This document shows, piece by piece, positions 40,908-51,369 of a stretch of DNA of 64,000 nt. The stretch is from an uncultured Phycisphaerales bacterium (GTDB lineage: Bacteria; Planctomycetota; B15-G4): positions 888 through 64,887 of the forward strand of contig CAZBBB010000004.1 in the NCBI GenBank assembly GCA_964490005.1, in the 5' to 3' direction. The position numbers and the translations under genes are program-made. Positions within the stretch are counted from its first letter, which is position 1; the number at the start of each line of letters is the position of its first letter. Under the pieces are notes generated by a model that worked only from the letters and a program-made list of their open reading frames with translations, was not told where the DNA came from and made no database searches.

Positions 40908-42035
40908 TCAGCGCGCGCGGACGGCGACGTCGCGCAGCGCGGTGGCGAGGCGCTCGGCGAACGCGGCGATGTCGGCGTCGGTGTTGCTCGGGCCGACGCT
41001 GATGCGCAGCGCGCCCTCGGCGCGCTCTGCGGGCCCACCGAGCGCGGCGATCACGGCCGAAGGTCGTTGCGAGCCCGACATGCACGCCGAACCGTGCGAC
41101 GCGCTCACGCCCAGCAGGTCGAGGCGCTGCACGAGCACGCTGCCACGGCGCCCGGGAAACGAGACGTTGAGCGTGTTCGAAAGGACGCGATCGACGGGAG
41201 AGTTCACCACCAGATGGGGCTCGACGTCGGTCATGGCCTCGAGCAGCCGAGCGGTCCAACCCGACCAGCGCGGTTGCGCGGCGGGGAGTTCCCTCAGCGC
41301 CGTCTCGGCGGCGGCGGCGAAGGCGTACGCCAGGGCGGCGGCCTCGGTTCCGGGCCGCAGCCCGCCCTCCTGGCCGCCCGCGGATCCGCCGCGCGCGGGC
41401 GACGCGAGCGAGCGACGCACGATGAGCGCGCCGATGCCGACGGGTCCACCCAGCTTGTGGGCCGAGAGGGTCATCAAGTCGGCGCCCGACGCGCGGAAGG
41501 ACAGCGGCTCCTTGCCGAACGCCTGGCTCGCATCGACGTGGAACAGGGCGTCCGCGCGCGCGGCGGCGGCGGCGAGCGAGGGCAGGTCCTGAAGCGTGCC
41601 GAGCTCGTGGTTGGCGGCCGCGACGCTCACCAAGGCAGCGCGCGTGGAGCTTGGCGCGGCGATCGAAGCGGGATCGACGCGTCCCCATGAATCGATCGCA
41701 AGAGCGAGGGGGCGACCGGTGCGCAGAACCGCCGCGAGGACCGAGGGGTGCTCGATGGGTGCGCAGGCGGCCGCGCCTCCGGGCGGAGTGAACGCGAGGG
41801 CGATCGCGTTGCTCTCGGTTCCGCCGGACGTGAAGACCAGTTCGTCGCGCTCGCAGTCGATGCAGCGCGCCAGGCGCTCGCGGGCCTCCTCGAGCCAGCG
41901 ACGCGCGCGTCGGCCGTCGGCGTGCGCGCTCGAGGGGTTGCCTGCGAGGCCCTCCTCGAAGCACTGCCACAGGCTCGACCGCGCCTCGGGGCGCAGCGGG
42001 CAGGTCGCGTTGTGGTCGAGATACAGGCGCTTCAT
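40908..42035 (-). CDS. Cysteine desulfurase (class V aminotransferase, NifS/IscS-like)
   Basis: 375 aa. FTSGGTESN, PLP-lysine SAHKLGGPVG and active-site SGSACMS. Confidence 0.8.
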   Translation of the reverse strand: MKRLYLDHNATCPLRPEARSSLWQCFEEGLAGNPSSAHADGRRARRWLEEARERLARCIDCERDELVFTSGGTESNAIALAFTPPGGAAACAPIEHPSVLAAVLRTGRPLALAIDSWGRVDPASIAAPSSTRAALVSVAAANHELGTLQDLPSLAAAAARADALFHVDASQAFGKEPLSFRASGADLMTLSAHKLGGPVGIGALIVRRSLASPARGGSAGGQEGGLRPGTEAAALAYAFAAAAETALRELPAAQPRWSGWTARLLEAMTDVEPHLVVNSPVDRVLSNTLNVSFPGRRGSVLVQRLDLLGVSASHGSACMSGSQRPSAVIAALGGPAERAEGALRISVGPSNTDADIAAFAERLATALRDVAVRAR

Positions 42036-43168
42036 GCGCCGGAACCGAGCAGCTCTTCGTAGATCGACTCGTGGCGCGCGACCGCCGCCTGCAGCGAAAA
42101 GACCTCTCGGGCGCGCTGCGCGCTGGCGGCGCCGAGTTGCCGGCGCAACGGGACGTCGTCGACGAGTCGCCCGACGGCCTCGGCCATGCCGGCCGTGTCC
42201 CCCACCGCCCGCAGATAGCCGGTCACGCCCTCGACCACCACCTCGGGCAGCCCGCCGACGCGCGAGGCGACGACGGGAACCGCGCAGGACATGGCCTCGA
42301 GGGCGGCCAGGCCGAACGACTCGGACTCGCTGGGAAACAGCGCCACGTCGGCGACCGCCGTGATGTGCTCGGCGTCGGGGATCTCGCCGAGCATGCGCAC
42401 GCGTCCGGCCAGGCCGCGCCGGCAGGCCTGGTCGCGAACGTGCTGCAGGTCGGGCCCGTCGCCGACGAGCATCAGGACGACGCGGCGCTCGGCGCCGAGC
42501 CGCTCGAGCACGTCGACCGTGTCGATGGCGCGCTTCAGGGGGCGGAAGTTGCTCGTGTGCAGCAACAGCGTCTCGTCGTCGGCGGCGAGTTCCCGCCGCG
42601 CGCGATCATCCTCGCGCGGCCGGAACCTGCGGGGGTCGACGAAGTTGGGCACGACATGGATCGGCCCGTCGTAGGCGAAGACTTCTCGCGTCTGCGCCTC
42701 CAGCCACGACGAGACGGAGATGACCGCGTCGCTCTTCTGCAGGCCGAAGCGGATGACCTCGCGGTAGCTCGGGTCGCGGCCGAGGATCGTGATGTCGGTG
42801 CCGTGGAGCGTGGTGACGATGCGGGTGCGCGAGGCCGGGAGCATCTCCCGGGCCAGCCAGGCGGACACGGCGTGCGGCACCGCGTAGTGCACGTGCAGGA
42901 CGTCGAGCGGCGTCGTCGCCATCACTTCGCGCAGCGTGGACGAGAGCGCCAGGTCGTAGGGCGGGTAGCGGAACAGCGGGTAGGACGAGACGCTCACGCC
43001 GTGGAACGTCACGCCGTGACGCAGCGCCGACAGTCGCGCGGGCCGCGAATAGCTGAAGAGATGGACGTCGTGCCCGCGGTCCGCAAGTGCCAGGCCGAGT
43101 TCGGTGGCCATCACGCCGCTGCCGCCGTAGGTCGGATAGCAGACGATGCCGATGCGTCGCCGCTTCAC
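42032..43168 (-). CDS. bshA: GT4 glycosyltransferase, BshA-like (N-acetyl-alpha-D-glucosaminyl L-malate synthase)
   Basis: GTG start (VKRRRIGIVCYPTYGGSGV...), 378 aa. EX7E-type motif (ESESFGLAALEAMSCAVPVVAS). 4-nt overlaps on both sides. Confidence 0.65.
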   Translation of the reverse strand: MKRRRIGIVCYPTYGGSGVMATELGLALADRGHDVHLFSYSRPARLSALRHGVTFHGVSVSSYPLFRYPPYDLALSSTLREVMATTPLDVLHVHYAVPHAVSAWLAREMLPASRTRIVTTLHGTDITILGRDPSYREVIRFGLQKSDAVISVSSWLEAQTREVFAYDGPIHVVPNFVDPRRFRPREDDRARRELAADDETLLLHTSNFRPLKRAIDTVDVLERLGAERRVVLMLVGDGPDLQHVRDQACRRGLAGRVRMLGEIPDAEHITAVADVALFPSESESFGLAALEAMSCAVPVVASRVGGLPEVVVEGVTGYLRAVGDTAGMAEAVGRLVDDVPLRRQLGAASAQRAREVFSLQAAVARHESIYEELLGSGA

Positions 43169-43902
43169 GGTGCGTGCCCGGTCTGTCCGTGGCCGCGCCC
43201 GCGGACGGCCGCCACCGGATCGTCGATCGCGAGCGGGCCCTCGACGATGTAGGGCTCTCCGTAGGTGGCGCCGATCATCGCGCCGCAGGTGCGATTGCCG
43301 GCGGCGATGGCCTCGAGGAAGTCCGGCGCGGAAATCGTCGTTCGCGGCTCGGTCGACGACGGATCGTGCAACTGGCTCGCGTGGGCGCGCACGGCCTCGA
43401 GCTTGCGTTCGAACACGTGGCTGATGTCGACGATCAGGGTCGGCTGGATCGGCTCGCGGGACGGATAGAACAGCACCCGACCGGGGCGCCACGGGTCGCC
43501 GGACGGACCGACGCGCGCGCACCCCGCCAGAAAGCGCGCTTCCTTCACGAGTTGACCGGTGCGCGCATGGTCCGGGTGGTCGTCGCTGATCCAGGGAGCG
43601 ACGACGAGCCGGGGGCGGTGGCGCCGGATCGCGTCGATCACGAGGTCGCGCGAGCTTCGATCCGATTCGATCGCACCGTCCGGAAGCCCGAGGCATTCGC
43701 GGAAGGCGAGTCCGAGGAGTTGGGCGCCGCGCGCCGCTTCCCCGGCGCGCCGATCGCTGGAGCCGCGCGTGCCCGATTCGCCGGCCGACATGTCGATGCC
43801 CCCCACCGTGCGTCCGCGCTCGCGCAGCGCGAGCACGAGACCGCCCGCGCAGATCTCGATGTCGTCGGGGTGCGGGCCGAAGACGAGGACATCAACCATC
43901 GC
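43165..43902 (-). CDS. bshB: LmbE/PIG-L family deacetylase, BshB-like
   Basis: Internal Met MVDVLVFGPHPDDIEICAGG (PIG-L HPDDE motif). 245 aa. Confidence 0.7.
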   Translation of the reverse strand, partial: AMVDVLVFGPHPDDIEICAGGLVLALRERGRTVGGIDMSAGESGTRGSSDRRAGEAARGAQLLGLAFRECLGLPDGAIESDRSSRDLVIDAIRRHRPRLVVAPWISDDHPDHARTGQLVKEARFLAGCARVGPSGDPWRPGRVLFYPSREPIQPTLIVDISHVFERKLEAVRAHASQLHDPSSTEPRTTISAPDFLEAIAAGNRTCGAMIGATYGEPYIVEGPLAIDDPVAAVRGRGHGQTGHAP

Positions 43903-45355
43903 GGCTCTCCGGGTCGGTGGTGTGGAGCACGTGGCGTGGCGGATCCAGCGGGCGCGCCAGGTCGACGAGTCGCCGCCCCCATGATGCAGGCCCTCCGTGC
44001 TCGAGCGCATCCGGAAGCCACGCGAGGACGGTGTCTTGGGGGCGGCCGCGCGGGCTGAGCGTCGCGGTCAGTAGCGAGCGCGGGCGGGTGTGCCAGGCGC
44101 GCTGTTCGGCCAGCCTGCGCATCGCGGACTCCGTCGACCGCCTCCAGCGCTCCGCGCGCGCCGCGATGCGCGCAGGTCCGTCGTCGAACGTGCGGGCGAA
44201 GTCGCGCAGGGCTTCACGCACGGCGTGCTCGGCAGGACCCGACGTGGACCGGGACGCGCCGAGGTCGAGCCCTTCCAGCCCGCCAGGGAGGCTGCCGAGG
44301 AGCGCCGGAGACACGAAGCTCGCTTCGAGGCGCGGCACCAGGACGGGGGCGATCAGTCCGAACTCCTGGTGCAGCAAACGTGCCTCACCCAGATAGCGCA
44401 GTTCGCTCGGCCCGCAGACTTGAGCGACCACCGGCAGCGACGCGGCCTGGACGAGGGGCCTGAGCGCGGCGTGGGGCGAGAAGTCTTCCGGCGATCGATC
44501 GTGGCGGCGGGCGGCCTCCCGATCCTCCGCAGCCACTCGCCGGCGTCGCCCGCCCCGCGACTCCATCACGAGCGGTCGCGGATCGCCGGCATCGAAGGAA
44601 GGCTGGAGACGGGCGGTCCGGGCGAGGTGCTGACCGCGCTCCAGGCTCGCGCGCAGTTGGTCCGGGCGGGTCAGGGCGCGGCGGATAATCTCATCGCCCA
44701 GCGGGCGCAGCGCATGCGCCTCGACCACGCGAAGCCCAAGAGGACCGAACGCGGCAAGCAGAGCGGCGCCATGGACTCTGGAGAGCTCGCAGAGCGCTGA
44801 ACTGTGAACGGATGTCGACTTTAAAACATCATTTAATTGATCACAACATGATTTCAAAGCACTTGTTAGAACCGAATCGTGATTCGTGGCGTACGTGCTG
44901 CGCCACGAAGCGTCGGAGCCGGGCAGGATGCGTGCCCTGAATCTCCGAATGCGGCCATCCAAATCATCGACAAGATCAATGTGATCCACCTCTGAAGAGT
45001 CGTGATCTTCTGTTGCGAGAAGGAACACCGGGACAACCGGACGAGACCAGGCGGACGAGAGATCGCGGGCGAGGGCGACCGCCGTGGCCGCCTTGTGGGC
45101 GATCAGGGCGGCGCCCGCTGCGAAGCAGGGCTGCTGTCCCGCGAGGACGACGAGTGCCCCCGAGGGAGCGGCTTCCCCGCGGAGAACGGCAAAGCCGCCG
45201 TTCCGTCCGGGATCGAGGGCCTGCGCGACGCGCTCGAAGCTTGCGAGCCCGGGCGCATGCCCCATCAGGGCCTGCAGCGACGGATCGCCCCCCCACCAAG
45301 CCTCCGTCCAGGACGCGTGCACCCTCGGCCTGGGCAGCCGACGCTCAGTGCTCAA
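43892..45355 (-). CDS. bshC: Bacillithiol biosynthesis cysteine-adding enzyme BshC-like
   Basis: 487 aa. LAGQQPCF...IAHKAATAVALA...PVVPVFLLATEDHDSSEVDH matches the recalled BshC N-terminal signature (GGQQ..G..HK...PVIPVFW.A.EDHD). Operonic with bshB-bshA. Confidence 0.55.
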   Translation of the reverse strand: MSTERRLPRPRVHASWTEAWWGGDPSLQALMGHAPGLASFERVAQALDPGRNGGFAVLRGEAAPSGALVVLAGQQPCFAAGAALIAHKAATAVALARDLSSAWSRPVVPVFLLATEDHDSSEVDHIDLVDDLDGRIRRFRARILPGSDASWRSTYATNHDSVLTSALKSCCDQLNDVLKSTSVHSSALCELSRVHGAALLAAFGPLGLRVVEAHALRPLGDEIIRRALTRPDQLRASLERGQHLARTARLQPSFDAGDPRPLVMESRGGRRRRVAAEDREAARRHDRSPEDFSPHAALRPLVQAASLPVVAQVCGPSELRYLGEARLLHQEFGLIAPVLVPRLEASFVSPALLGSLPGGLEGLDLGASRSTSGPAEHAVREALRDFARTFDDGPARIAARAERWRRSTESAMRRLAEQRAWHTRPRSLLTATLSPRGRPQDTVLAWLPDALEHGGPASWGRRLVDLARPLDPPRHVLHTTDPESRDG

Positions 45356-46251
45356 CGCGTGGCCTGGTGCGCAGCCTCGCGAAGCTGGTCGCGCAGCTTC
45401 TTCGCGGCGTCCCGAATGGGAGATTGCCAGTCGGCGCAGGCGGGATCGCCGAAGGCGTACAGAATCCCCCGCGACGAGTTCACGATCGCACCGAGGCCCG
45501 CCGAGTCGAAGGCGGCGGCGACATCGCGCGCCGTTGCGCCCTGGGCCCCGACTCCGGGGACGAGGAACCAGGCTTCAGGAAGCAGGCTTCGAAGCCGCGC
45601 CAGCTCGGCGGGCATGGTTGCGCCGACGACCGCGCCGACGCCGCAGTAGCCTCTCGAGGTCTCGAGCTGCGTCCCCCATTCGCGAACGAGCTGGGCGATG
45701 TGTTCATGAAGTGCGCGGCCATCGACGCGCAGGTCCTGCAACTCGCGGGCGGACGGATTTGACGTCCGGACGAGGATGAACAGGCCGGCGCCGGAACTGC
45801 GCGCCTCTCGCAGGAACGGAACGACGCTGTCCGACCCGAGGAGCGGATTGACCGTGACGGCGTCGGCGGCATGCGCGCCGCGCAGGTGGCCGGCGGCGTA
45901 GGCCTCGGCGGTCGAGCCGATGTCCCCGCGCTTGATGTCGCCGATGACGAGCAGGCCGGCGCGCTTCGCGGCGACGATGGCGGCCTCGTACGCCTCGATT
46001 CCCGGAGGCCCCCAACGCTCGTAATAGGCGCTCTGGGGTTTGACCGCGACCGCGTAGGGGCGGACGAGGTCGATGACGGCCGCGTCGAAGCGTCGAATGG
46101 CGTCTGCGGCGCGCGAGCGCTCATCCCCGCCCTCCGCGCGCTCGAGGATCGCCGCCGGGAACAGGGAGGGTTGCGGGTCGAGGCCGACGACAAGTGCCGA
46201 GTCCTTGCTCAGGACGGCATCCGCGAGGCGCTCGGCGAACGGCGAGGGCAT
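45352..46251 (-). CDS. pyrF: Orotidine 5'-phosphate decarboxylase (type 2)
   Basis: 299 aa from an internal Met (MPSPFAERLADAVLSKDSALVVGLDP) of ORF 45352..46581. DIKRGDIGST motif. Confidence 0.8.
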   Translation of the reverse strand: MPSPFAERLADAVLSKDSALVVGLDPQPSLFPAAILERAEGGDERSRAADAIRRFDAAVIDLVRPYAVAVKPQSAYYERWGPPGIEAYEAAIVAAKRAGLLVIGDIKRGDIGSTAEAYAAGHLRGAHAADAVTVNPLLGSDSVVPFLREARSSGAGLFILVRTSNPSARELQDLRVDGRALHEHIAQLVREWGTQLETSRGYCGVGAVVGATMPAELARLRSLLPEAWFLVPGVGAQGATARDVAAAFDSAGLGAIVNSSRGILYAFGDPACADWQSPIRDAAKKLRDQLREAAHQATR

Positions 46252-46832
46252 CAAGACTCCAGGAATGCCGCCAGGATCTGCCCACCGCATGGCGTCAGGA
46301 ACGACTCGGGATGGAACTGAACGCCGTAGTGGGGGCGCTCGGCGTGCCGAAGGGCCATGATATCGCCGTGCGGACTGCGAGCGGAGATGATCCACTCCCG
46401 GGGAAGCCCGACCTCCTCGACCAGCAATGAGTGGTACAGACCGGCATCGAAACGCGGAAGCGCTCGATCGAATGGAGGGCCGCCGTCGTGCGTGATCGAG
46501 ACGGCCCGCCCGTGCGTTGGTCTGGGGGAGCGGACGATCCGAGCCCCGGACGCGAACGCGAGCGCTTGGTGGCCGAGGCACACTCCGAGCAATGGGGTGT
46601 CCGGCCAGATGTCGCTGGCGACCAGCGAAGCTCCGGAGCGTCCGGGATGTCCTGGCCCGGGCGAGAGCACGACATGCGTGTACTCGCGGCGCTTCGAGTC
46701 CCCGACATCGACACGATCGTTGCGAACCACGGCAAGCGAGGCCCCTGGGCGGCAGAGGGCGCCAATGGCCTGATATAAATTATATGTAAACGAATCGTAA
46801 TTATCTATTATTAGTATATTCATATCAGACAT
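46251..46832 (-). CDS. pabA: Glutamine amidotransferase component of anthranilate/aminodeoxychorismate synthase
   Basis: MSDMNILIIDNYDSFTYNLYQ, catalytic GVCLGHQAL, HPES. The first ~25 codons are strikingly AT-rich. Confidence 0.85.
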   Translation of the reverse strand: MSDMNILIIDNYDSFTYNLYQAIGALCRPGASLAVVRNDRVDVGDSKRREYTHVVLSPGPGHPGRSGASLVASDIWPDTPLLGVCLGHQALAFASGARIVRSPRPTHGRAVSITHDGGPPFDRALPRFDAGLYHSLLVEEVGLPREWIISARSPHGDIMALRHAERPHYGVQFHPESFLTPCGGQILAAFLES

Positions 46833-46901
46833 CGCAGCGCGCGTCGACTTCAAAGGGCGGTCACGGCGTTGAGGCGGATAACGTCAATGTTAGTGGTAGA
46901 T

Positions 46902-48086
46902 TCAATATTCTATAAGTGAAGTATCGCTAACAGAGGCGCTCAGGAGCTCTCGGACGATGCTGTCCGCTCGCGGCAGCTCCTGCGGGGGGAGCGAGATGCC
47001 GTCGGAATCGTTCCGCACGAGCCCGATCGAGCAGAGCCGCGGGAGGGCGTCGCCAAGTACTGCCTTCCATGAGGGGCCGAAGCGTCGTTCCAAGCGTGCC
47101 CGCGGGATCCCGTCCCGCGTGCGCAGCCCCGTGGCCAGCGTCTCGAGCAGACGCTGGACCGGGGTCACTCGTTCGCAGGCGGCTCTCGCGGAGCGCGAAC
47201 CCTGGCAGGCGGCGCCGTAAGCCGCCAGCGTCCGCTGGTTGGTCCAGCGCCACGGATGGACGGAACTCGCCGCGCTGGGTCCGAGACCCACGTAGGAGTC
47301 GTTGCGCCAGTAGACCTGATTGTGTCGCGAGCGGTGCCCGGCGCGGCTGAAGTTCGAGACCTCGTAGCGCTGCAGTCCGCCGCGTTCGAGGAGTTCGGAC
47401 CAGGTGGCATCGAACGCGTCGCGTCGCGTGCTCGGCGCGACGACGATGCGGCCTTGATGCTGCAGGCGATGGAGCGGGGTGTCTTCTTCGATCGTCAGCC
47501 CGTAGACCGACACATGCGGCGGGCAGAACGCGAGCAACTGATTCACATCGGCGATGACGTCGGATCGCCGCTGCCCGGCCCATCCCACGAGCAGGTCCGC
47601 CGACCACGTGTGGGGCCAATGAGCGGCGACGAGGTCAAGCGCGGCGAGCACGTCGTCGGTCGAGTCGTGGCGGCCGAGGCGCGCCAGGACGTCGTGTCGA
47701 AACGTCTGTGTCCCGACGGAAAGCCGCGTGATGCCGAGTGCGTTCCACGCGCGCAACGCGGCCAGCGAGATGTCGCCGGGGTTCACCTCGAGCGTGACCT
47801 CGGCGCGCGCGGGCATTGACGTCGCTTCGCAAACGACGCCGAGAAGGCGTTCAAGCACATCGGGGGCGAGGCGCGACGGAGTGCCACCGCCGACGTACAC
47901 GGTCTCGAGCGCGTGTCCGAGGGGCGCCCGCCGCGCTTCGCGCGCGAGCGCATCGACGAAGTGCTCGTGCAGCGATGGGTCGTCGGGGAGAGTCGCGAAC
48001 GCGCAGTACGTGCAGCGGTCCCGACAGAAGGGAACGTGCACGTAGACACTGGACGGTGGGCCGTCCGGACCACGATCGAGCAGCAC
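46902..48086 (-). CDS. hemW: Radical SAM heme chaperone HemW (HemN-like)
   Basis: 394 aa. CRDRCTYCAF radical-SAM motif and HemN_C-like C-terminus. Confidence 0.85.
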   Translation of the reverse strand: MLLDRGPDGPPSSVYVHVPFCRDRCTYCAFATLPDDPSLHEHFVDALAREARRAPLGHALETVYVGGGTPSRLAPDVLERLLGVVCEATSMPARAEVTLEVNPGDISLAALRAWNALGITRLSVGTQTFRHDVLARLGRHDSTDDVLAALDLVAAHWPHTWSADLLVGWAGQRRSDVIADVNQLLAFCPPHVSVYGLTIEEDTPLHRLQHQGRIVVAPSTRRDAFDATWSELLERGGLQRYEVSNFSRAGHRSRHNQVYWRNDSYVGLGPSAASSVHPWRWTNQRTLAAYGAACQGSRSARAACERVTPVQRLLETLATGLRTRDGIPRARLERRFGPSWKAVLGDALPRLCSIGLVRNDSDGISLPPQELPRADSIVRELLSASVSDTSLIEY

Positions 48087-48103
48087 GGCCGAGGCGCCCT
48101 CGG

Positions 48104-48895
48104 TTAGACGGGTTCGCCCTCGGTCAGGGCAGCCAGCAGGCGGGCAAGCGCCTCGTTCTGGATTTGACGCACGCGTTCGCGGGTCAGACCCAACTCCTGG
48201 CCGATCTCCTTGAGGGTCATCGGCTCATCGTAGCCGAGACCGAAGCGCATCCGCAGAATCCGGACCTGCCTCTCATCCAGAGAGTCGAGGAGCAGCAACA
48301 TCCGCCGCTGCTCCTGTTGCTCAAGCATCGTCCTGCCCGGGTCGGGACTGTTCGGGTCGACGATGACCTCCGTGAGGTCGCCGTTCTCCTCGTCCTGCGC
48401 GAAGGACTGGGTATAGCGCGACGCGGTTCGCATGGCGGCCCGTACGGCGACGACGGCGTCGTCCTTCAGCTTCATGTGTCGGCCGACCTCCCCCGGCGAG
48501 GGCTCGCGGCCGAGCTCGAGCACGAGACGCTCCGTCGTCTGTTGCCAGCGCGACATGAGCTCGATCATGTAGGAAGGAATGCGCACGGTCTTCACCGTGT
48601 TCGTCAGCGCCCGGCGAATCGACTGCTTGATCCACCAGGTCGCGTAGGTCGAGAACCTGCAGTTCGCGTCGGGGTCGAACTTCTCGACGGCGCGCATGAG
48701 GCCGACGTTGCCTTCCTCGATGAGGTCGAGCAGCGCCATGCCGCGGTTCATGTAGCGCTTCGCGATGCTGACGACAAGCCGGAGGTTGGCGGCGGCAAGG
48801 TCGTTGCGCGACTGGCGACAGCCGAGCCGCACGCCGCGCGCGAGTTCCTTCTCCTGGTCAGCCGTCAGCAGCTTGACGCGGTTGATCTCCCGCAA
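48104..48895 (-). CDS. Group-2 sigma-70 family sigma factor (RpoS/RpoD-like without region 1.1)
   Basis: 263 aa. Region 1.2 [11 protein letters not shown]; region 2 [41 protein letters not shown]; region 3 [11 protein letters not shown]; region 4 [23 protein letters not shown]. Confidence 0.8.
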
Positions 48896-49047
48896 GTAAA
48901 TCTCGATCGACTGGTCGCCGGGAATCGGAGTCGCTCCGTGGAGAGGACACAGCGGGGCCCTCGTCGACTGCGTGCTGCGGCGGGCTTGAGGCGAAACCGG
49001 CCTCCGACCGACGAGAGTGCTATGCTGACGGAATCCGGGTCGGGCTC

Positions 49048-50343
49048 ATGACGCAGCAGGCCAAGTCACGCGACATCATCGTGCGGGAGGATGAATTCGG
49101 CCGCCTGCTCGCGGAGGCCGGCCTGAGCTGCGGCGCTTGGGCGGCGACGCTGCTGCGTGACCGTCGGCTGCTGGCCGATGAAGACGTGGTCGCCGCGTTC
49201 GTGCATCGGGCGCATGAGCTCGAGGCGTTCCTCGACGACTTCGGTGCACGCGAGAATCGAACGTTCGTGATGCTCGGCGAACTCGCGGCATCCCTGCACG
49301 GGCTCGCGACCGTGAAGACCAATGCCCTGCACCTGACCGCGCGGCTGCCGCGCTACCATGTGCTCATCGACAGCGGCCCGCTGGCTGCCGCGCTCGAGCA
49401 GGCGCACGTGATTCTGGACGACAGCCTGACCGCCCTGCTCGAAGCCTTCGCCAACGAGAGCCGCCGTTGGCTGCGAGACGACCTCGAGATCGCGCTGCCG
49501 ACGGGCGGACTGTCATCGCAGCGGCAACTCCTTCCGAGAAACCTCGACGAAGGCGAGACGGTCGACGAGCGCCAGCACATCGCGGAGATCGGTGCCCGGT
49601 TTCTGGCCATTCTTGCGACAAGCCGGAGCCTGGAACTCGGCCACAAGCGACCGATCAGGGAACTGCGGGACTTCGTGGCCGAGCACGCCACGGAGGCTCG
49701 CTGCCGCTGGTACGAGTCCTCCGTGCACAGCATTCAGTCCATGTACGACACCTACGTGCTGAACACCGCGGTGGAGCGCGACCACCCCTGGTTGAAGTCG
49801 ATGCGCGGACACGCGTCGGTTGCATTGCACCTGCTCGAGATGGCGACGGGGCTGGTGCACTTCTACGAGCGGCACGAGAACGACATCCGACATGAGCGGG
49901 CACGCCAAGCCATCGCGAAACTCGTGGCAAAGGACGAAGTCCTCGACGTCGCTGTTAATATAAGCCTAAGGCAGGCATATATTTACGTTGAGTCTGCGGC
50001 GGCAACGGCCAGTCAGATCTTGCGCACGTTCGTGAGGCATGGCGTCGCCAACCTGCGGCTTCTGCCGGGCATCACGCTGCACGCTCGGCCGCTCGCGCTC
50101 GTCGCCCAGGTTGCGAGGCATTACGGCACGCCGCTCGAGATCGACTTCGACGGCGACTCATGTGCCGCGGGGTCGCTCATGAGCCTGATCCTGCTCGGGG
50201 GCAAGCACCCCCGGCCCGTCGAGATCACGGCGCGAGGCGATGCCAGGGCGCTCCGAGACCTTGAAATTCTCTTCGCGGCGGGCCTTGGCGAGGGCGGCCG
50301 GGCATTGCCCCCGGAGCTCGACTACCTGCGCGCCAGGAATTAA
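49048..50343 (+). CDS. Protein with unknown 340-aa N-terminal domain fused to C-terminal HPr-family phosphocarrier domain
   Basis: 431 aa. The C-terminus LRLLPGITLHARPLALVAQVARHYGTPLEIDFDGDSCAAGSLMSLILLGGKHPRPVEITARGDARALRDLEILF matches HPr (His in GLHARPA; Ser region; GxxxxAxG). Confidence 0.6.
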   Translation: MTQQAKSRDIIVREDEFGRLLAEAGLSCGAWAATLLRDRRLLADEDVVAAFVHRAHELEAFLDDFGARENRTFVMLGELAASLHGLATVKTNALHLTARLPRYHVLIDSGPLAAALEQAHVILDDSLTALLEAFANESRRWLRDDLEIALPTGGLSSQRQLLPRNLDEGETVDERQHIAEIGARFLAILATSRSLELGHKRPIRELRDFVAEHATEARCRWYESSVHSIQSMYDTYVLNTAVERDHPWLKSMRGHASVALHLLEMATGLVHFYERHENDIRHERARQAIAKLVAKDEVLDVAVNISLRQAYIYVESAAATASQILRTFVRHGVANLRLLPGITLHARPLALVAQVARHYGTPLEIDFDGDSCAAGSLMSLILLGGKHPRPVEITARGDARALRDLEILFAAGLGEGGRALPPELDYLRARN

Positions 50344-50481: not shown

Positions 50482-51369
50482 ATGGGCGTGGATCGCAGGC
50501 TTGGGCGCGGGCTGGACAGCCTGATCTCCAGGACGACGGTAGAGGTAGGCGCCGGATCTCCTGCTGGGAGGCTCGTGGAGATCCCGGTGGCGATGGTCGA
50601 CCCGAACCCGGATCAGCCTCGCAAGTCGATGAATGAAGCCACTTTGGATGGATTGGCTGCCTCGATTAAGGCGCATGGGGTGCTGCAGCCGATCGTGGTC
50701 CAAGCCAGAGGGGCGCGTTATGAGCTCGTCGCCGGTGAGCGCCGACTTCGGGCTTCGAAGCGAGCGGGCCTCGAGACCGTTCCCGCGATCATCCTGGAGG
50801 TCGGGCCGGACAAGTCACTTGAGCTGGCGCTGCTCGAGAACATCCAGCGGGAGGACCTGGGAGCACTGGAAGAGGCATCGGCCTACGACGCCCTCATCGA
50901 ACGACTCGGCCTGACGCATCAGGCGCTTGCCGACCGCATCGGCAAGAGCAGGGCCTTCGTCACGAACAGTCTCAGGCTGCTGGAGCTGCCAGATGCCGTC
51001 AAGCGCCTGGTGCAGAGCGGAGCGCTTGCAGCCGGGCAGGCTCGTGCGCTGCTTGGCGCTCCGACTCCCGCCGATGTTGCCAGCCTCGCCATTGAGGCGG
51101 CGCGCAACCATTGGTCAACGCGCGAAGTTGAGAGCAGGGTGCGAGCCCTTTCGAAAGCCCGTGGGGGGCGCAAGGCGCGCCGCGTACACACCGAGATGAA
51201 GTCGCGATCAAGCGAAGAACTACGAACGTTATTCGGAACTAAGGTGACAGTAAGGGAGAACGATGGGCGCGGCGAGGTTGCGCTGGCGTTCTATTCGGCG
51301 CAGGATCGCGACAGACTGCTCCACTTGCTGCTCATCGGCGGCCGCAGTGCGGAGCGCCAGGGCGGCTAG
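50482..51369 (+). CDS. parB: Chromosome partitioning protein ParB/Spo0J
   Basis: 295 aa. GRGLDSLI N-terminus, LQPIVV, GERRLRAS box and HTH, plus a C-terminal dimerisation domain. Confidence 0.85.
   Translation: MGVDRRLGRGLDSLISRTTVEVGAGSPAGRLVEIPVAMVDPNPDQPRKSMNEATLDGLAASIKAHGVLQPIVVQARGARYELVAGERRLRASKRAGLETVPAIILEVGPDKSLELALLENIQREDLGALEEASAYDALIERLGLTHQALADRIGKSRAFVTNSLRLLELPDAVKRLVQSGALAAGQARALLGAPTPADVASLAIEAARNHWSTREVESRVRALSKARGGRKARRVHTEMKSRSSEELRTLFGTKVTVRENDGRGEVALAFYSAQDRDRLLHLLLIGGRSAERQGG

Follow-up and report, generated by a model that had tools for sequence, protein, structure and literature searches.

Conserved rare-codon clusters are known to lie mostly within domains, where they separate small structural motifs (Chaney et al. 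2017, PMC5438181), and a second relevant system, the bldA-dependent control of TTA codons, has been described in Streptomyces (PMC2000904). Here we analyse an AT-rich island at positions 44790-45040 of a 64,000-nt stretch (hereafter the window) from contig CAZBBB010000004.1 of an uncultured Phycisphaerales bacterium. The island lies inside a bshC-like gene (43892..45355, minus strand, 487 codons), whose product is, judging from its sequence, a predicted divergent bacillithiol cysteine-adding enzyme (BshC) of a Planctomycetota-type subfamily. An initial annotation of the window had taken the island either for a mosaic segment of foreign origin or for a rare-codon, bldA-like translational checkpoint. 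We show that, across most of the lineages in a deep Planctomycetota clade, aligned positions of bshC retain rare codons without retaining particular ones, and that the cluster is conserved, being either selected or maintained. Both operational hallmarks of a position-specific conserved rare-codon cluster (PMC5438181) are found in the bshC block.

Shape and codon content of the island

The AT-rich island is real and beyond chance. Its GC content is 50.6%, compared with a mean of 71.4% (SD 4.5%) over the 251-nt windows of the 64 kb (z = -4.7); the value of ~45% given at first was too low. Composition across the window was taken from frame-independent GC windows; a crude open reading frame (ORF) caller based on the GC content of third codon positions (GC3) picked some shadow ORFs. 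The island had been placed in the middle of the gene as one patch, but it covers codons ~108-190, i.e. the first third, and is composed of two lobes with a spacer between them. The reading frame is indeed uninterrupted through the island, and the peptide initially quoted for it is correct. Among seven stretches of the window with less than 55% GC in 90-nt windows, the bshC island is the sole deep intragenic one, the others being mostly intergenic or at 5' ends.

The first lobe, sub-island A (codons 108-140, 44936..45034, minus strand), encodes the conserved motif FLLATEDHDSSEVDHID and the following beta-hairpin. Its conserved FLLATEDHDSSEVDH motif is among the best conserved of the family (PVFLLATEDHDSxEVDHxD). 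GC is 50% over 44946-45035, and GC3 is 0.40-0.47 compared with 0.81 in the rest of the gene. GAT makes up six of the seven Asp codons, accompanied by gcA, acA, gaA, tcT, tcA, atT, ctT, ttG, agA and agG. The AlphaFold2 (AF2) model places a helix at residues 120-123 and strands at 125-129 and 136-140 in this lobe.

The spacer (codons 141-157, 44885..44935, minus strand) carries the conserved residues P145, F150 and W155 and is normal in composition, with 68% GC over 44886-44945 and a GC3 deviation of ~0 in both the window and the orthologs. A perfect 9-bp inverted repeat with a 9-nt loop (TTCGTGGCG / CGCCACGAA, 44883-44891 / 44901-44909) is located in the spacer, exactly between the lobes.

The second lobe, sub-island B (codons 158-190, 44786..44884, minus strand; DSVLTSALKSCCDQLNDVLKSTSVHSSALCELS), is the deepest rare-codon cluster, with 34.9% GC over 44800-44885 and a GC3 of 0.13-0.27. 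It is also the most variable part of the protein, comprising the least conserved alignment bins and varying in length among orthologs. In the AF2 model it forms two low-confidence helices and a loop (predicted local distance difference test score, pLDDT, 46-57). Two TTA (Leu) codons are read from the sequence at codon 174 (44834-44836) and codon 178 (44822-44824), and two consecutive rare Cys codons, TGT TGT, at codons 170-171 (44843..44848), all on the minus strand.

That these codons are otherwise rare was well observed in the initial annotation. In the ~17,500 codons of the window's other ORFs (the crude GC3-based set), the frequencies per 1000 codons are 0.06 for TTA, which occurs only once, 0.4 for CTA, 0.57 for AAA, 0.9 for ACA, 1.0 for TGT (9.6 for TGC) and 1.4 for TCA, and GAT represents 15% of Asp codons. 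With the %MinMax metric of Clarke & Clark, the minimum of the gene is -90 at codon 170, and all 31 of its negative windows are centred at codons 118-182.

The island also provides stop codons that terminate long shadow ORFs of other frames. A 43-codon antisense ORF (MSTLKHHLIDHNMISKHLLEPNRDSWRTCCATKRRSRAGCVP, 44812-44943, plus strand), spotted by eye, begins with an ATG within sub-island B and probably arose by chance, as the AT-rich sequence permits.

Two further members of the gene's protein cluster were found in independent assemblies of other sequencing runs. One (L161, SRR28842990) is 99.1% identical to the window over 5.1 kb and the other (L162, SRR22250828) 99.5% over 5.7 kb, both without gaps. 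Each carries the island, with 2 SNPs inside it, and the SNP density of the island (1.6% vs 1.0% elsewhere) is not unusual. The derived (singleton) SNPs among the three strains comprise 32 GC>AT, 11 AT>GC and 10 other changes, and all four within the island are GC>AT. These co-occurring strains differ at ~0.5-0.9% of sites when compared over window positions 43852-49000. Nine of the 17 singleton SNPs in bshC are non-synonymous, including R135C, C170F and D176N within the island.

Conservation of the block across lineages

The comparison set consists of 15 lineages, i.e. the window and 14 non-redundant orthologous loci from Planctomycetota metagenome-assembled genomes (MAGs) and metagenomes. The 14 orthologs are 41-49% identical to the window BshC and all pairs among the 15 lineages share less than 70% amino-acid identity, so that synonymous sites are long saturated. 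GC3 deviations were corrected for amino-acid identity by means of each gene's own codon usage outside the block. The mean ortholog deviation is -0.17 to -0.26 at codons 121-140 and -0.14 to -0.22 at codons 161-180, against values within ~+/-0.07 in bins outside codons 121-190. Codons 121-185 constitute the lowest-GC3 65-codon block of bshC in 12 of the 15 lineages (11 of the 14 orthologs).

The dip is specific to this gene and this clade. When 205 ten-codon bins of seven syntenic genes were considered, three of the four lowest ortholog means were found in the block (-0.22, -0.20 and -0.13; SD 0.044), and the six neighbouring syntenic genes lack such a dip. No dip is seen either at the aligned positions of 35 GC-rich BshC genes (GC3 >= 0.75) of other phyla, implying that the dip is neither a side-effect of the encoded amino acids nor a universal property of BshC.

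Codon rarity was evaluated by %MinMax in ~17-codon windows using the organism's own codon usage, with 300 random reverse translations as the null. Values below 0 occur within codons 116-192 in 10 of the 15 lineages, and 167 of the 196 negative windows fall in this range. Rare-codon windows co-occur in up to six of the 15 lineages (at codon 177); the null gives a mean maximum of 1.02, the highest value of 2 being reached among its 300 runs.

In the orthologs the dip is mainly a third-position effect. At codons 131-140 the deviation is -0.25 for GC3, -0.06 at first positions (GC1) and +0.05 at second positions (GC2), and at codons 171-180 the corresponding values are -0.21, -0.07 and -0.03. Both A3 (2.1x) and T3 (2.6x) are enriched in the block, so that strand-asymmetric deamination was rejected as its cause. 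The rare codons at corresponding positions differ by lineage, comprising CTA, TTA, AGA, CGA, AGG, AGT, TCA, ATA, GAT and others, and AGG, a rare codon that ends in G, is found repeatedly at the invariant Arg140. The only k-mers shared across lineages in the block are those forced by conserved residues (EDHD/EVDH).

GATC was considered as a further candidate, since the block contains 44 occurrences, whereas synonymous shuffling predicts 29.9. For GAT preceding C, the odds ratio is ~2.7 in the block and ~2.9 in the rest of the gene, an equally strong preference. GATC clustering was therefore rejected as the origin of the island, being part of a gene-wide context bias. In the window and the 14 orthologs, outside the block, GAT makes up 39% of Asp codons before a C-initial codon and 20% before other codons; inside the block the shares are 55% and 29%. 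This bias entails a GATC excess throughout the bshC genes, which could reflect codon-pair bias or GATC-related selection.

We favour the reading that the first third of bshC contains a native cluster of rare synonymous codons ending in A or T, which is position-specific and has been maintained in evolution; its lobes lie at codons ~121-140 and ~161-185. We give this reading an even chance of being right. Elsewhere in the same genes, under GC pressure, GC3 is 0.8-0.95. AT-biased mutation is expected for bacteria (PMC2936535), and the AT bias of the derived SNPs implies that this background GC3 is actively maintained. An AT-rich patch with no cause of its own should presumably have been erased at such divergence.

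The most likely function of the cluster, as the pattern suggests, is a translational slow-down that orders the folding of the Rossmann-like domain. The ribosome would be slowed just after the first beta-alpha unit, and again after beta-2 and the beta-hairpin, leave the exit tunnel. With such pauses, these sub-motifs could fold or dock before synthesis of the variable helical segment and of the remaining domain. In the AF2 model the lobes trail beta1-alpha1 (residues 68-103) and beta2 with the beta-hairpin (residues 107-140) by about one exit-tunnel length, a relation that draws on what is generally known of the ribosomal tunnel. The second lobe in the window seems to fall in a segment nearly free of sequence constraint. 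The same pressure may therefore have pulled first and second codon positions, and hence the choice of amino acids, towards AT as well, giving an unusually deep island.

Several points weigh against the favoured reading. The feature is leaky: two lineages (L086 and L093) lack the dip, a third (L003) is marginal, and several others are single-lobed. The codon-usage tables of the orthologs were built on only 500-2200 codons each. In sub-island B of the window GC1 and GC2 are depressed too, which fits a nucleotide-level alternative, and this lobe is the least conserved part of the protein, so that some contribution of relaxed constraint is possible. We infer the mechanism from the pattern, and in GC-rich genomes rare codons are nearly equivalent to AT-rich sequence; if DNA or RNA had to be AT-rich or unstructured here, much of this pattern would be expected as well.

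If the favoured reading holds, bshC offers a clean and directly testable natural example of synonymous-site selection, in which a rare-codon cluster has kept its place despite a strong pull of the whole genome towards GC, in lineages with long-saturated synonymous sites. Codons 121-185 would be a test case for the role of translation speed in the folding of Rossmann-like enzymes in GC-rich bacteria. The block also advises caution in "codon-optimising" such genes for heterologous expression.

Alternative explanations for the block

The alternative that survives best is a nucleotide-level cis-element inside the coding sequence. AT-rich, weakly structured DNA or RNA would be required in itself and codon rarity would be a by-product; candidates are an AU-rich entry site for an endonuclease (RNase E/Y-type), a binding site for a small RNA (sRNA) or protein, an internal or antisense promoter, or a nucleoid-protein site. 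We regard this as possible, though unlikely. It would account for the AT shift at all three codon positions in sub-island B of the window, amino-acid choice included, and for the perfect 9-bp GC hairpin between two AU-rich stretches; the strict synteny of seven genes could also let an operon-level element keep its place. In the orthologs, however, the dip lies mostly at third positions, and no k-mer is common beyond those forced by conserved amino acids. The affected lobe also varies by lineage, which is unexpected for a fixed site.

Searches for such elements yielded a single candidate. A weak sigma-70-like match (TTGAAA-18-AATGAT, 9/12) is located in sub-island B on the minus, i.e. sense, strand at 44828..44857, and shuffles give ~0 such matches. 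No promoter-like match was found anywhere in the bshC of the 14 orthologs, and the one in the window is probably a by-product of AT-richness. The block has no Rfam match at E<=1, no excess RNA structure (fold z = -0.44) and no terminator.

A neutral composition effect appears less probable still. Here, a fast-evolving, indel-prone segment would escape a GC-enriching force, either biased gene conversion or codon selection, and the universal AT bias of mutation would show through. The low conservation, variable length and low pLDDT of sub-island B agree with this, as does the direction of the derived SNPs (32 GC>AT vs 11 AT>GC overall and 4/4 in the island), which is consistent with PMC2936535. 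However, other poorly conserved bins (codons 1-10, 41-60, 351-370 and 421-430) show no GC3 dip, and conservation does not correlate with GC3 deviation outside the block (rho = 0.13, p = 0.42). Sub-island A, for its part, coincides with a motif that is among the protein's most conserved. Protein variability was thus rejected as the sole cause, given the variable control bins without a dip and the highly conserved residues under sub-island A.

The geometry and polymorphism of the island also speak against a neutral origin. Its boundaries are sharp, within ~10 codons, and the lobes are parted by a spacer of normal GC; this scale is much shorter than is generally assumed for conversion tracts. The SNP density given above is not unusual either.

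We consider it rather improbable that the block is a built-in metabolic sensor. The ribosome would slow at the two TTA codons and the TGT-TGT pair in the gene of a cysteine-adding enzyme, so that BshC synthesis could be coupled to the supply of charged tRNA (cysteine or leucine) or to growth phase. The overlapping downstream bshB-bshA genes could then be affected through transcription-translation uncoupling and polarity. Tentatively, this might amount to an internal attenuation-like control of bacillithiol production. Across the subfamily, Cys shows a weak, ~3-fold enrichment in codons 142-192 (1.7% vs 0.5%), but 12 of 23 members have none there.

A TTA-specific, bldA-like checkpoint, in which the availability of one rare tRNA, tRNA-Leu(UAA), would control translation of bshC and hence bacillithiol synthesis, is very unlikely. 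It has a precedent in bldA itself (PMC2000904). The window bshC does contain TTA at codons 174 and 178, and codons 129-184 hold all eight of the TTA codons that bshC has in the 15 lineages. At ~0.06 per 1000 codons, TTA use in the window's ORFs is about as low as in Streptomyces. However, bshC has no TTA in nine of the 15 lineages and the positions in the other six are unaligned. Housekeeping neighbours carry TTA too, with seven in hemN, six in the gene of a class-I glutamine amidotransferase (GATase) and one in pyrF across the 15 lineages, and the block is rich in many rare codons rather than in TTA particularly. No tRNA genes were found in the 64-kb window. A bldA-like gate is conceivable for this one organism, but a TTA-specific checkpoint is not the conserved feature. 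Of the checkpoint proposed in the initial annotation, what stands is the conserved rare-codon cluster, made of many kinds of codons; the TTA/bldA detail does not (TTA occurs in the block in six of 15 lineages).

Least tenable among the biological explanations is a recent mosaic, in which the segment would have been recombined in from a low-GC donor; we hold this to be highly unlikely. In its favour, sub-island B has an unusual composition at each of the three codon positions, and no ortholog contains a peptide closely similar to the one it encodes. The ortholog alignment that had been proposed as a check for an insertion shows none: the window BshC aligns through the island without indel to 22 subfamily proteins and to the Protein Data Bank (PDB) structure 4WBD. 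Orthologs of the same composition, which had been named as evidence that would speak against foreign origin, do exist, as 11 of the 14 distant ones have their lowest-GC3 block at the same codons. The dip extends to the lowest-GC members of the clade, L002 and L083 (GC3 0.2-0.3), so that no clade member could be the donor. Searches for a donor were empty: no relative of the island peptides was found in metagenome contigs, and the island DNA had no blastn match among plasmids or phages. The island is present in all three strains, where its SNP density is ordinary.

An insertion or mosaic was rejected on the basis of the indel-free alignments and the dip common to the orthologs. Because the dip occurs at the same codons in deep orthologs, the sequence comparison appears to exclude a recent foreign origin of the island. 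This should caution against composition-based calls of horizontal gene transfer (HGT) or chimerism, since the bshC patch, at 35% GC in a genome of 71% GC, is native and conserved. A sequencing or assembly chimera, which the initial annotation had listed as a possible refutation and which might come to mind for what is evidently a metagenome-assembled contig, is virtually precluded by the gap-free reproduction of the island in two independent assemblies (SRR28842990 and SRR22250828).

The bsh locus and comparison with known systems

The assignment of the product to BshC is based on several matches. The protein matches Pfam PF10079, the Rossmann-like BshC domain, at E=3.7e-32, and a profile of the subfamily matches PDB 4WBD (Bacillus subtilis BshC) at E=5.4e-48. 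The score against NCBIfam TIGR03998 is 129 bits, below the equivalog cutoff of 265.8. The mean pLDDT of the AF2 model is 82.9. The C-terminal PF24850, which accompanies PF10079 in canonical BshC (P0073-P0080), has no match in the subfamily (the window protein and P0002-P0072; ~475-500 aa). At residue 141, most subfamily members have Cys (RxRC) and the window protein has Ala.

The start of the gene probably lies upstream of the annotated one. The database protein P0001 (457 aa) begins at Met31, and the gene call in L162 corresponds to a 476-aa version. Residues 12-25 of the window BshC (VHASWTEAWWGGD) align with the nearly invariant H13, W16, W20 and G23 of the orthologs, suggesting that the true start is upstream of Met31. 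The probable start codon is the TTG at 45355; it shares bases with the pyrF stop in the sequence TTGA.

Two bacillithiol genes follow directly downstream on the same strand. The deacetylase gene bshB1 (43165..43899, minus strand; TIGR04001, 233 bits, above the cutoff of 182.5) has a start that overlaps the bshC stop by 8 nt, an overlap also present in the L162 gene call. The glycosyltransferase gene bshA (42032..43160, minus strand, start approximate) scores 465.9 bits against TIGR03999 (cutoff 273.7), the match covering residues 181-550 of a long ORF. Upstream of bshC are pyrF, the GATase gene, a gene for a HemN-like radical-SAM protein and one for a sigma-70 factor.

The order and orientation of the whole array, sigma70-hemN-GATase-pyrF-bshC-bshB-bshA (window 42032-48895), are kept across the deep Planctomycetota lineages recovered. 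The loci compared were L001-L003, L006 and L081-L093, among which short contigs cover only part of the array; the GATase has no match in L002 and L093. BshC evolves fastest in the array (41-50% identity, compared with 59-77% for BshB/BshA and 64-87% for sigma70).

Other AT-rich patches and a possible origin were noted around the array. In 251-nt windows, the only other locus as low as the bshC island comprises the 5' end of the GATase gene and intergenic sequence at ~46.7-47.0 kb. The deepest AT-rich island of the window (46705-46986), where GC falls to 0.33, takes in the intergenic region between hemN and GATase together with the first ~45 GATase codons; codon 26 of GATase is TTA in three lineages (the window, L001 and L083). 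A shallower intragenic patch at 49930-50000 (minimum GC 0.48 in 90 nt; gctgttaatataagcctaaggcaggcatatatttacgttgagtct) corresponds to codons ~295-317 of a plus-strand ORF (49048..50343), ~25-45 codons before its C-terminal PTS-HPr domain (residues 344-409), and may be another rare-codon cluster at a domain boundary. A gene for a ParB-family protein (ParB_N and HTH_ParB; 50482-51369, plus strand) is located 5.5 kb from the island, by a strand switch at ~49.0 kb. A replication origin or DNA-unwinding element was considered given this parB and rejected, as GC skew was uninformative and showed no origin-like switch in the window or at the island.

Like canonical BshC (B. subtilis YllA, 4WBD), the window protein has the Rossmann-like domain PF10079 and the motifs GQQ and EDHD, and its gene has bshB1 and bshA as neighbours. 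It differs in scoring below the TIGR03998 cutoff, in having no detectable PF24850 and in being ~50 residues shorter. The rare-codon block of the window's clade is missing from the corresponding positions of GC-rich canonical BshC genes of other phyla. The island resembles horizontally acquired mosaic segments in its local GC drop of more than 20 points and its atypical codon usage. It differs from them in having neither indel, donor nor amelioration, and in sharing the same dip with deeply diverged orthologs.

Similarities with the bldA/TTA control of Streptomyces (PMC2000904) are the GC-rich background, the near absence of TTA and the location of the bshC TTA codons in a weakly constrained segment; like the UUA codon in the adpA linker (PMC10732093), they could in principle tie translation to a rare tRNA. 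Unlike in the bldA system, however, TTA in bshC is conserved neither in presence nor in position and occurs in housekeeping neighbours as well, and the bshC signal is that of a general rare-codon cluster.

The closest correspondence is with the clusters of Chaney et al. (PMC5438181), and the bshC island is best viewed as a new, unusually deep example of this already known phenomenon. In both cases, synonymous rare codons are located in the coding sequence away from the 5' end, inside a structural domain and between small structural motifs. Also in both, rarity and not codon identity is kept at aligned positions, to an extent that exceeds random reverse translations. The bshC block is distinguished from those clusters by its unusual depth (%MinMax -90; 35% GC in a 71% GC genome) and its two lobes, by its confinement to one clade of the family, and by its reach, in the window, into non-synonymous positions.

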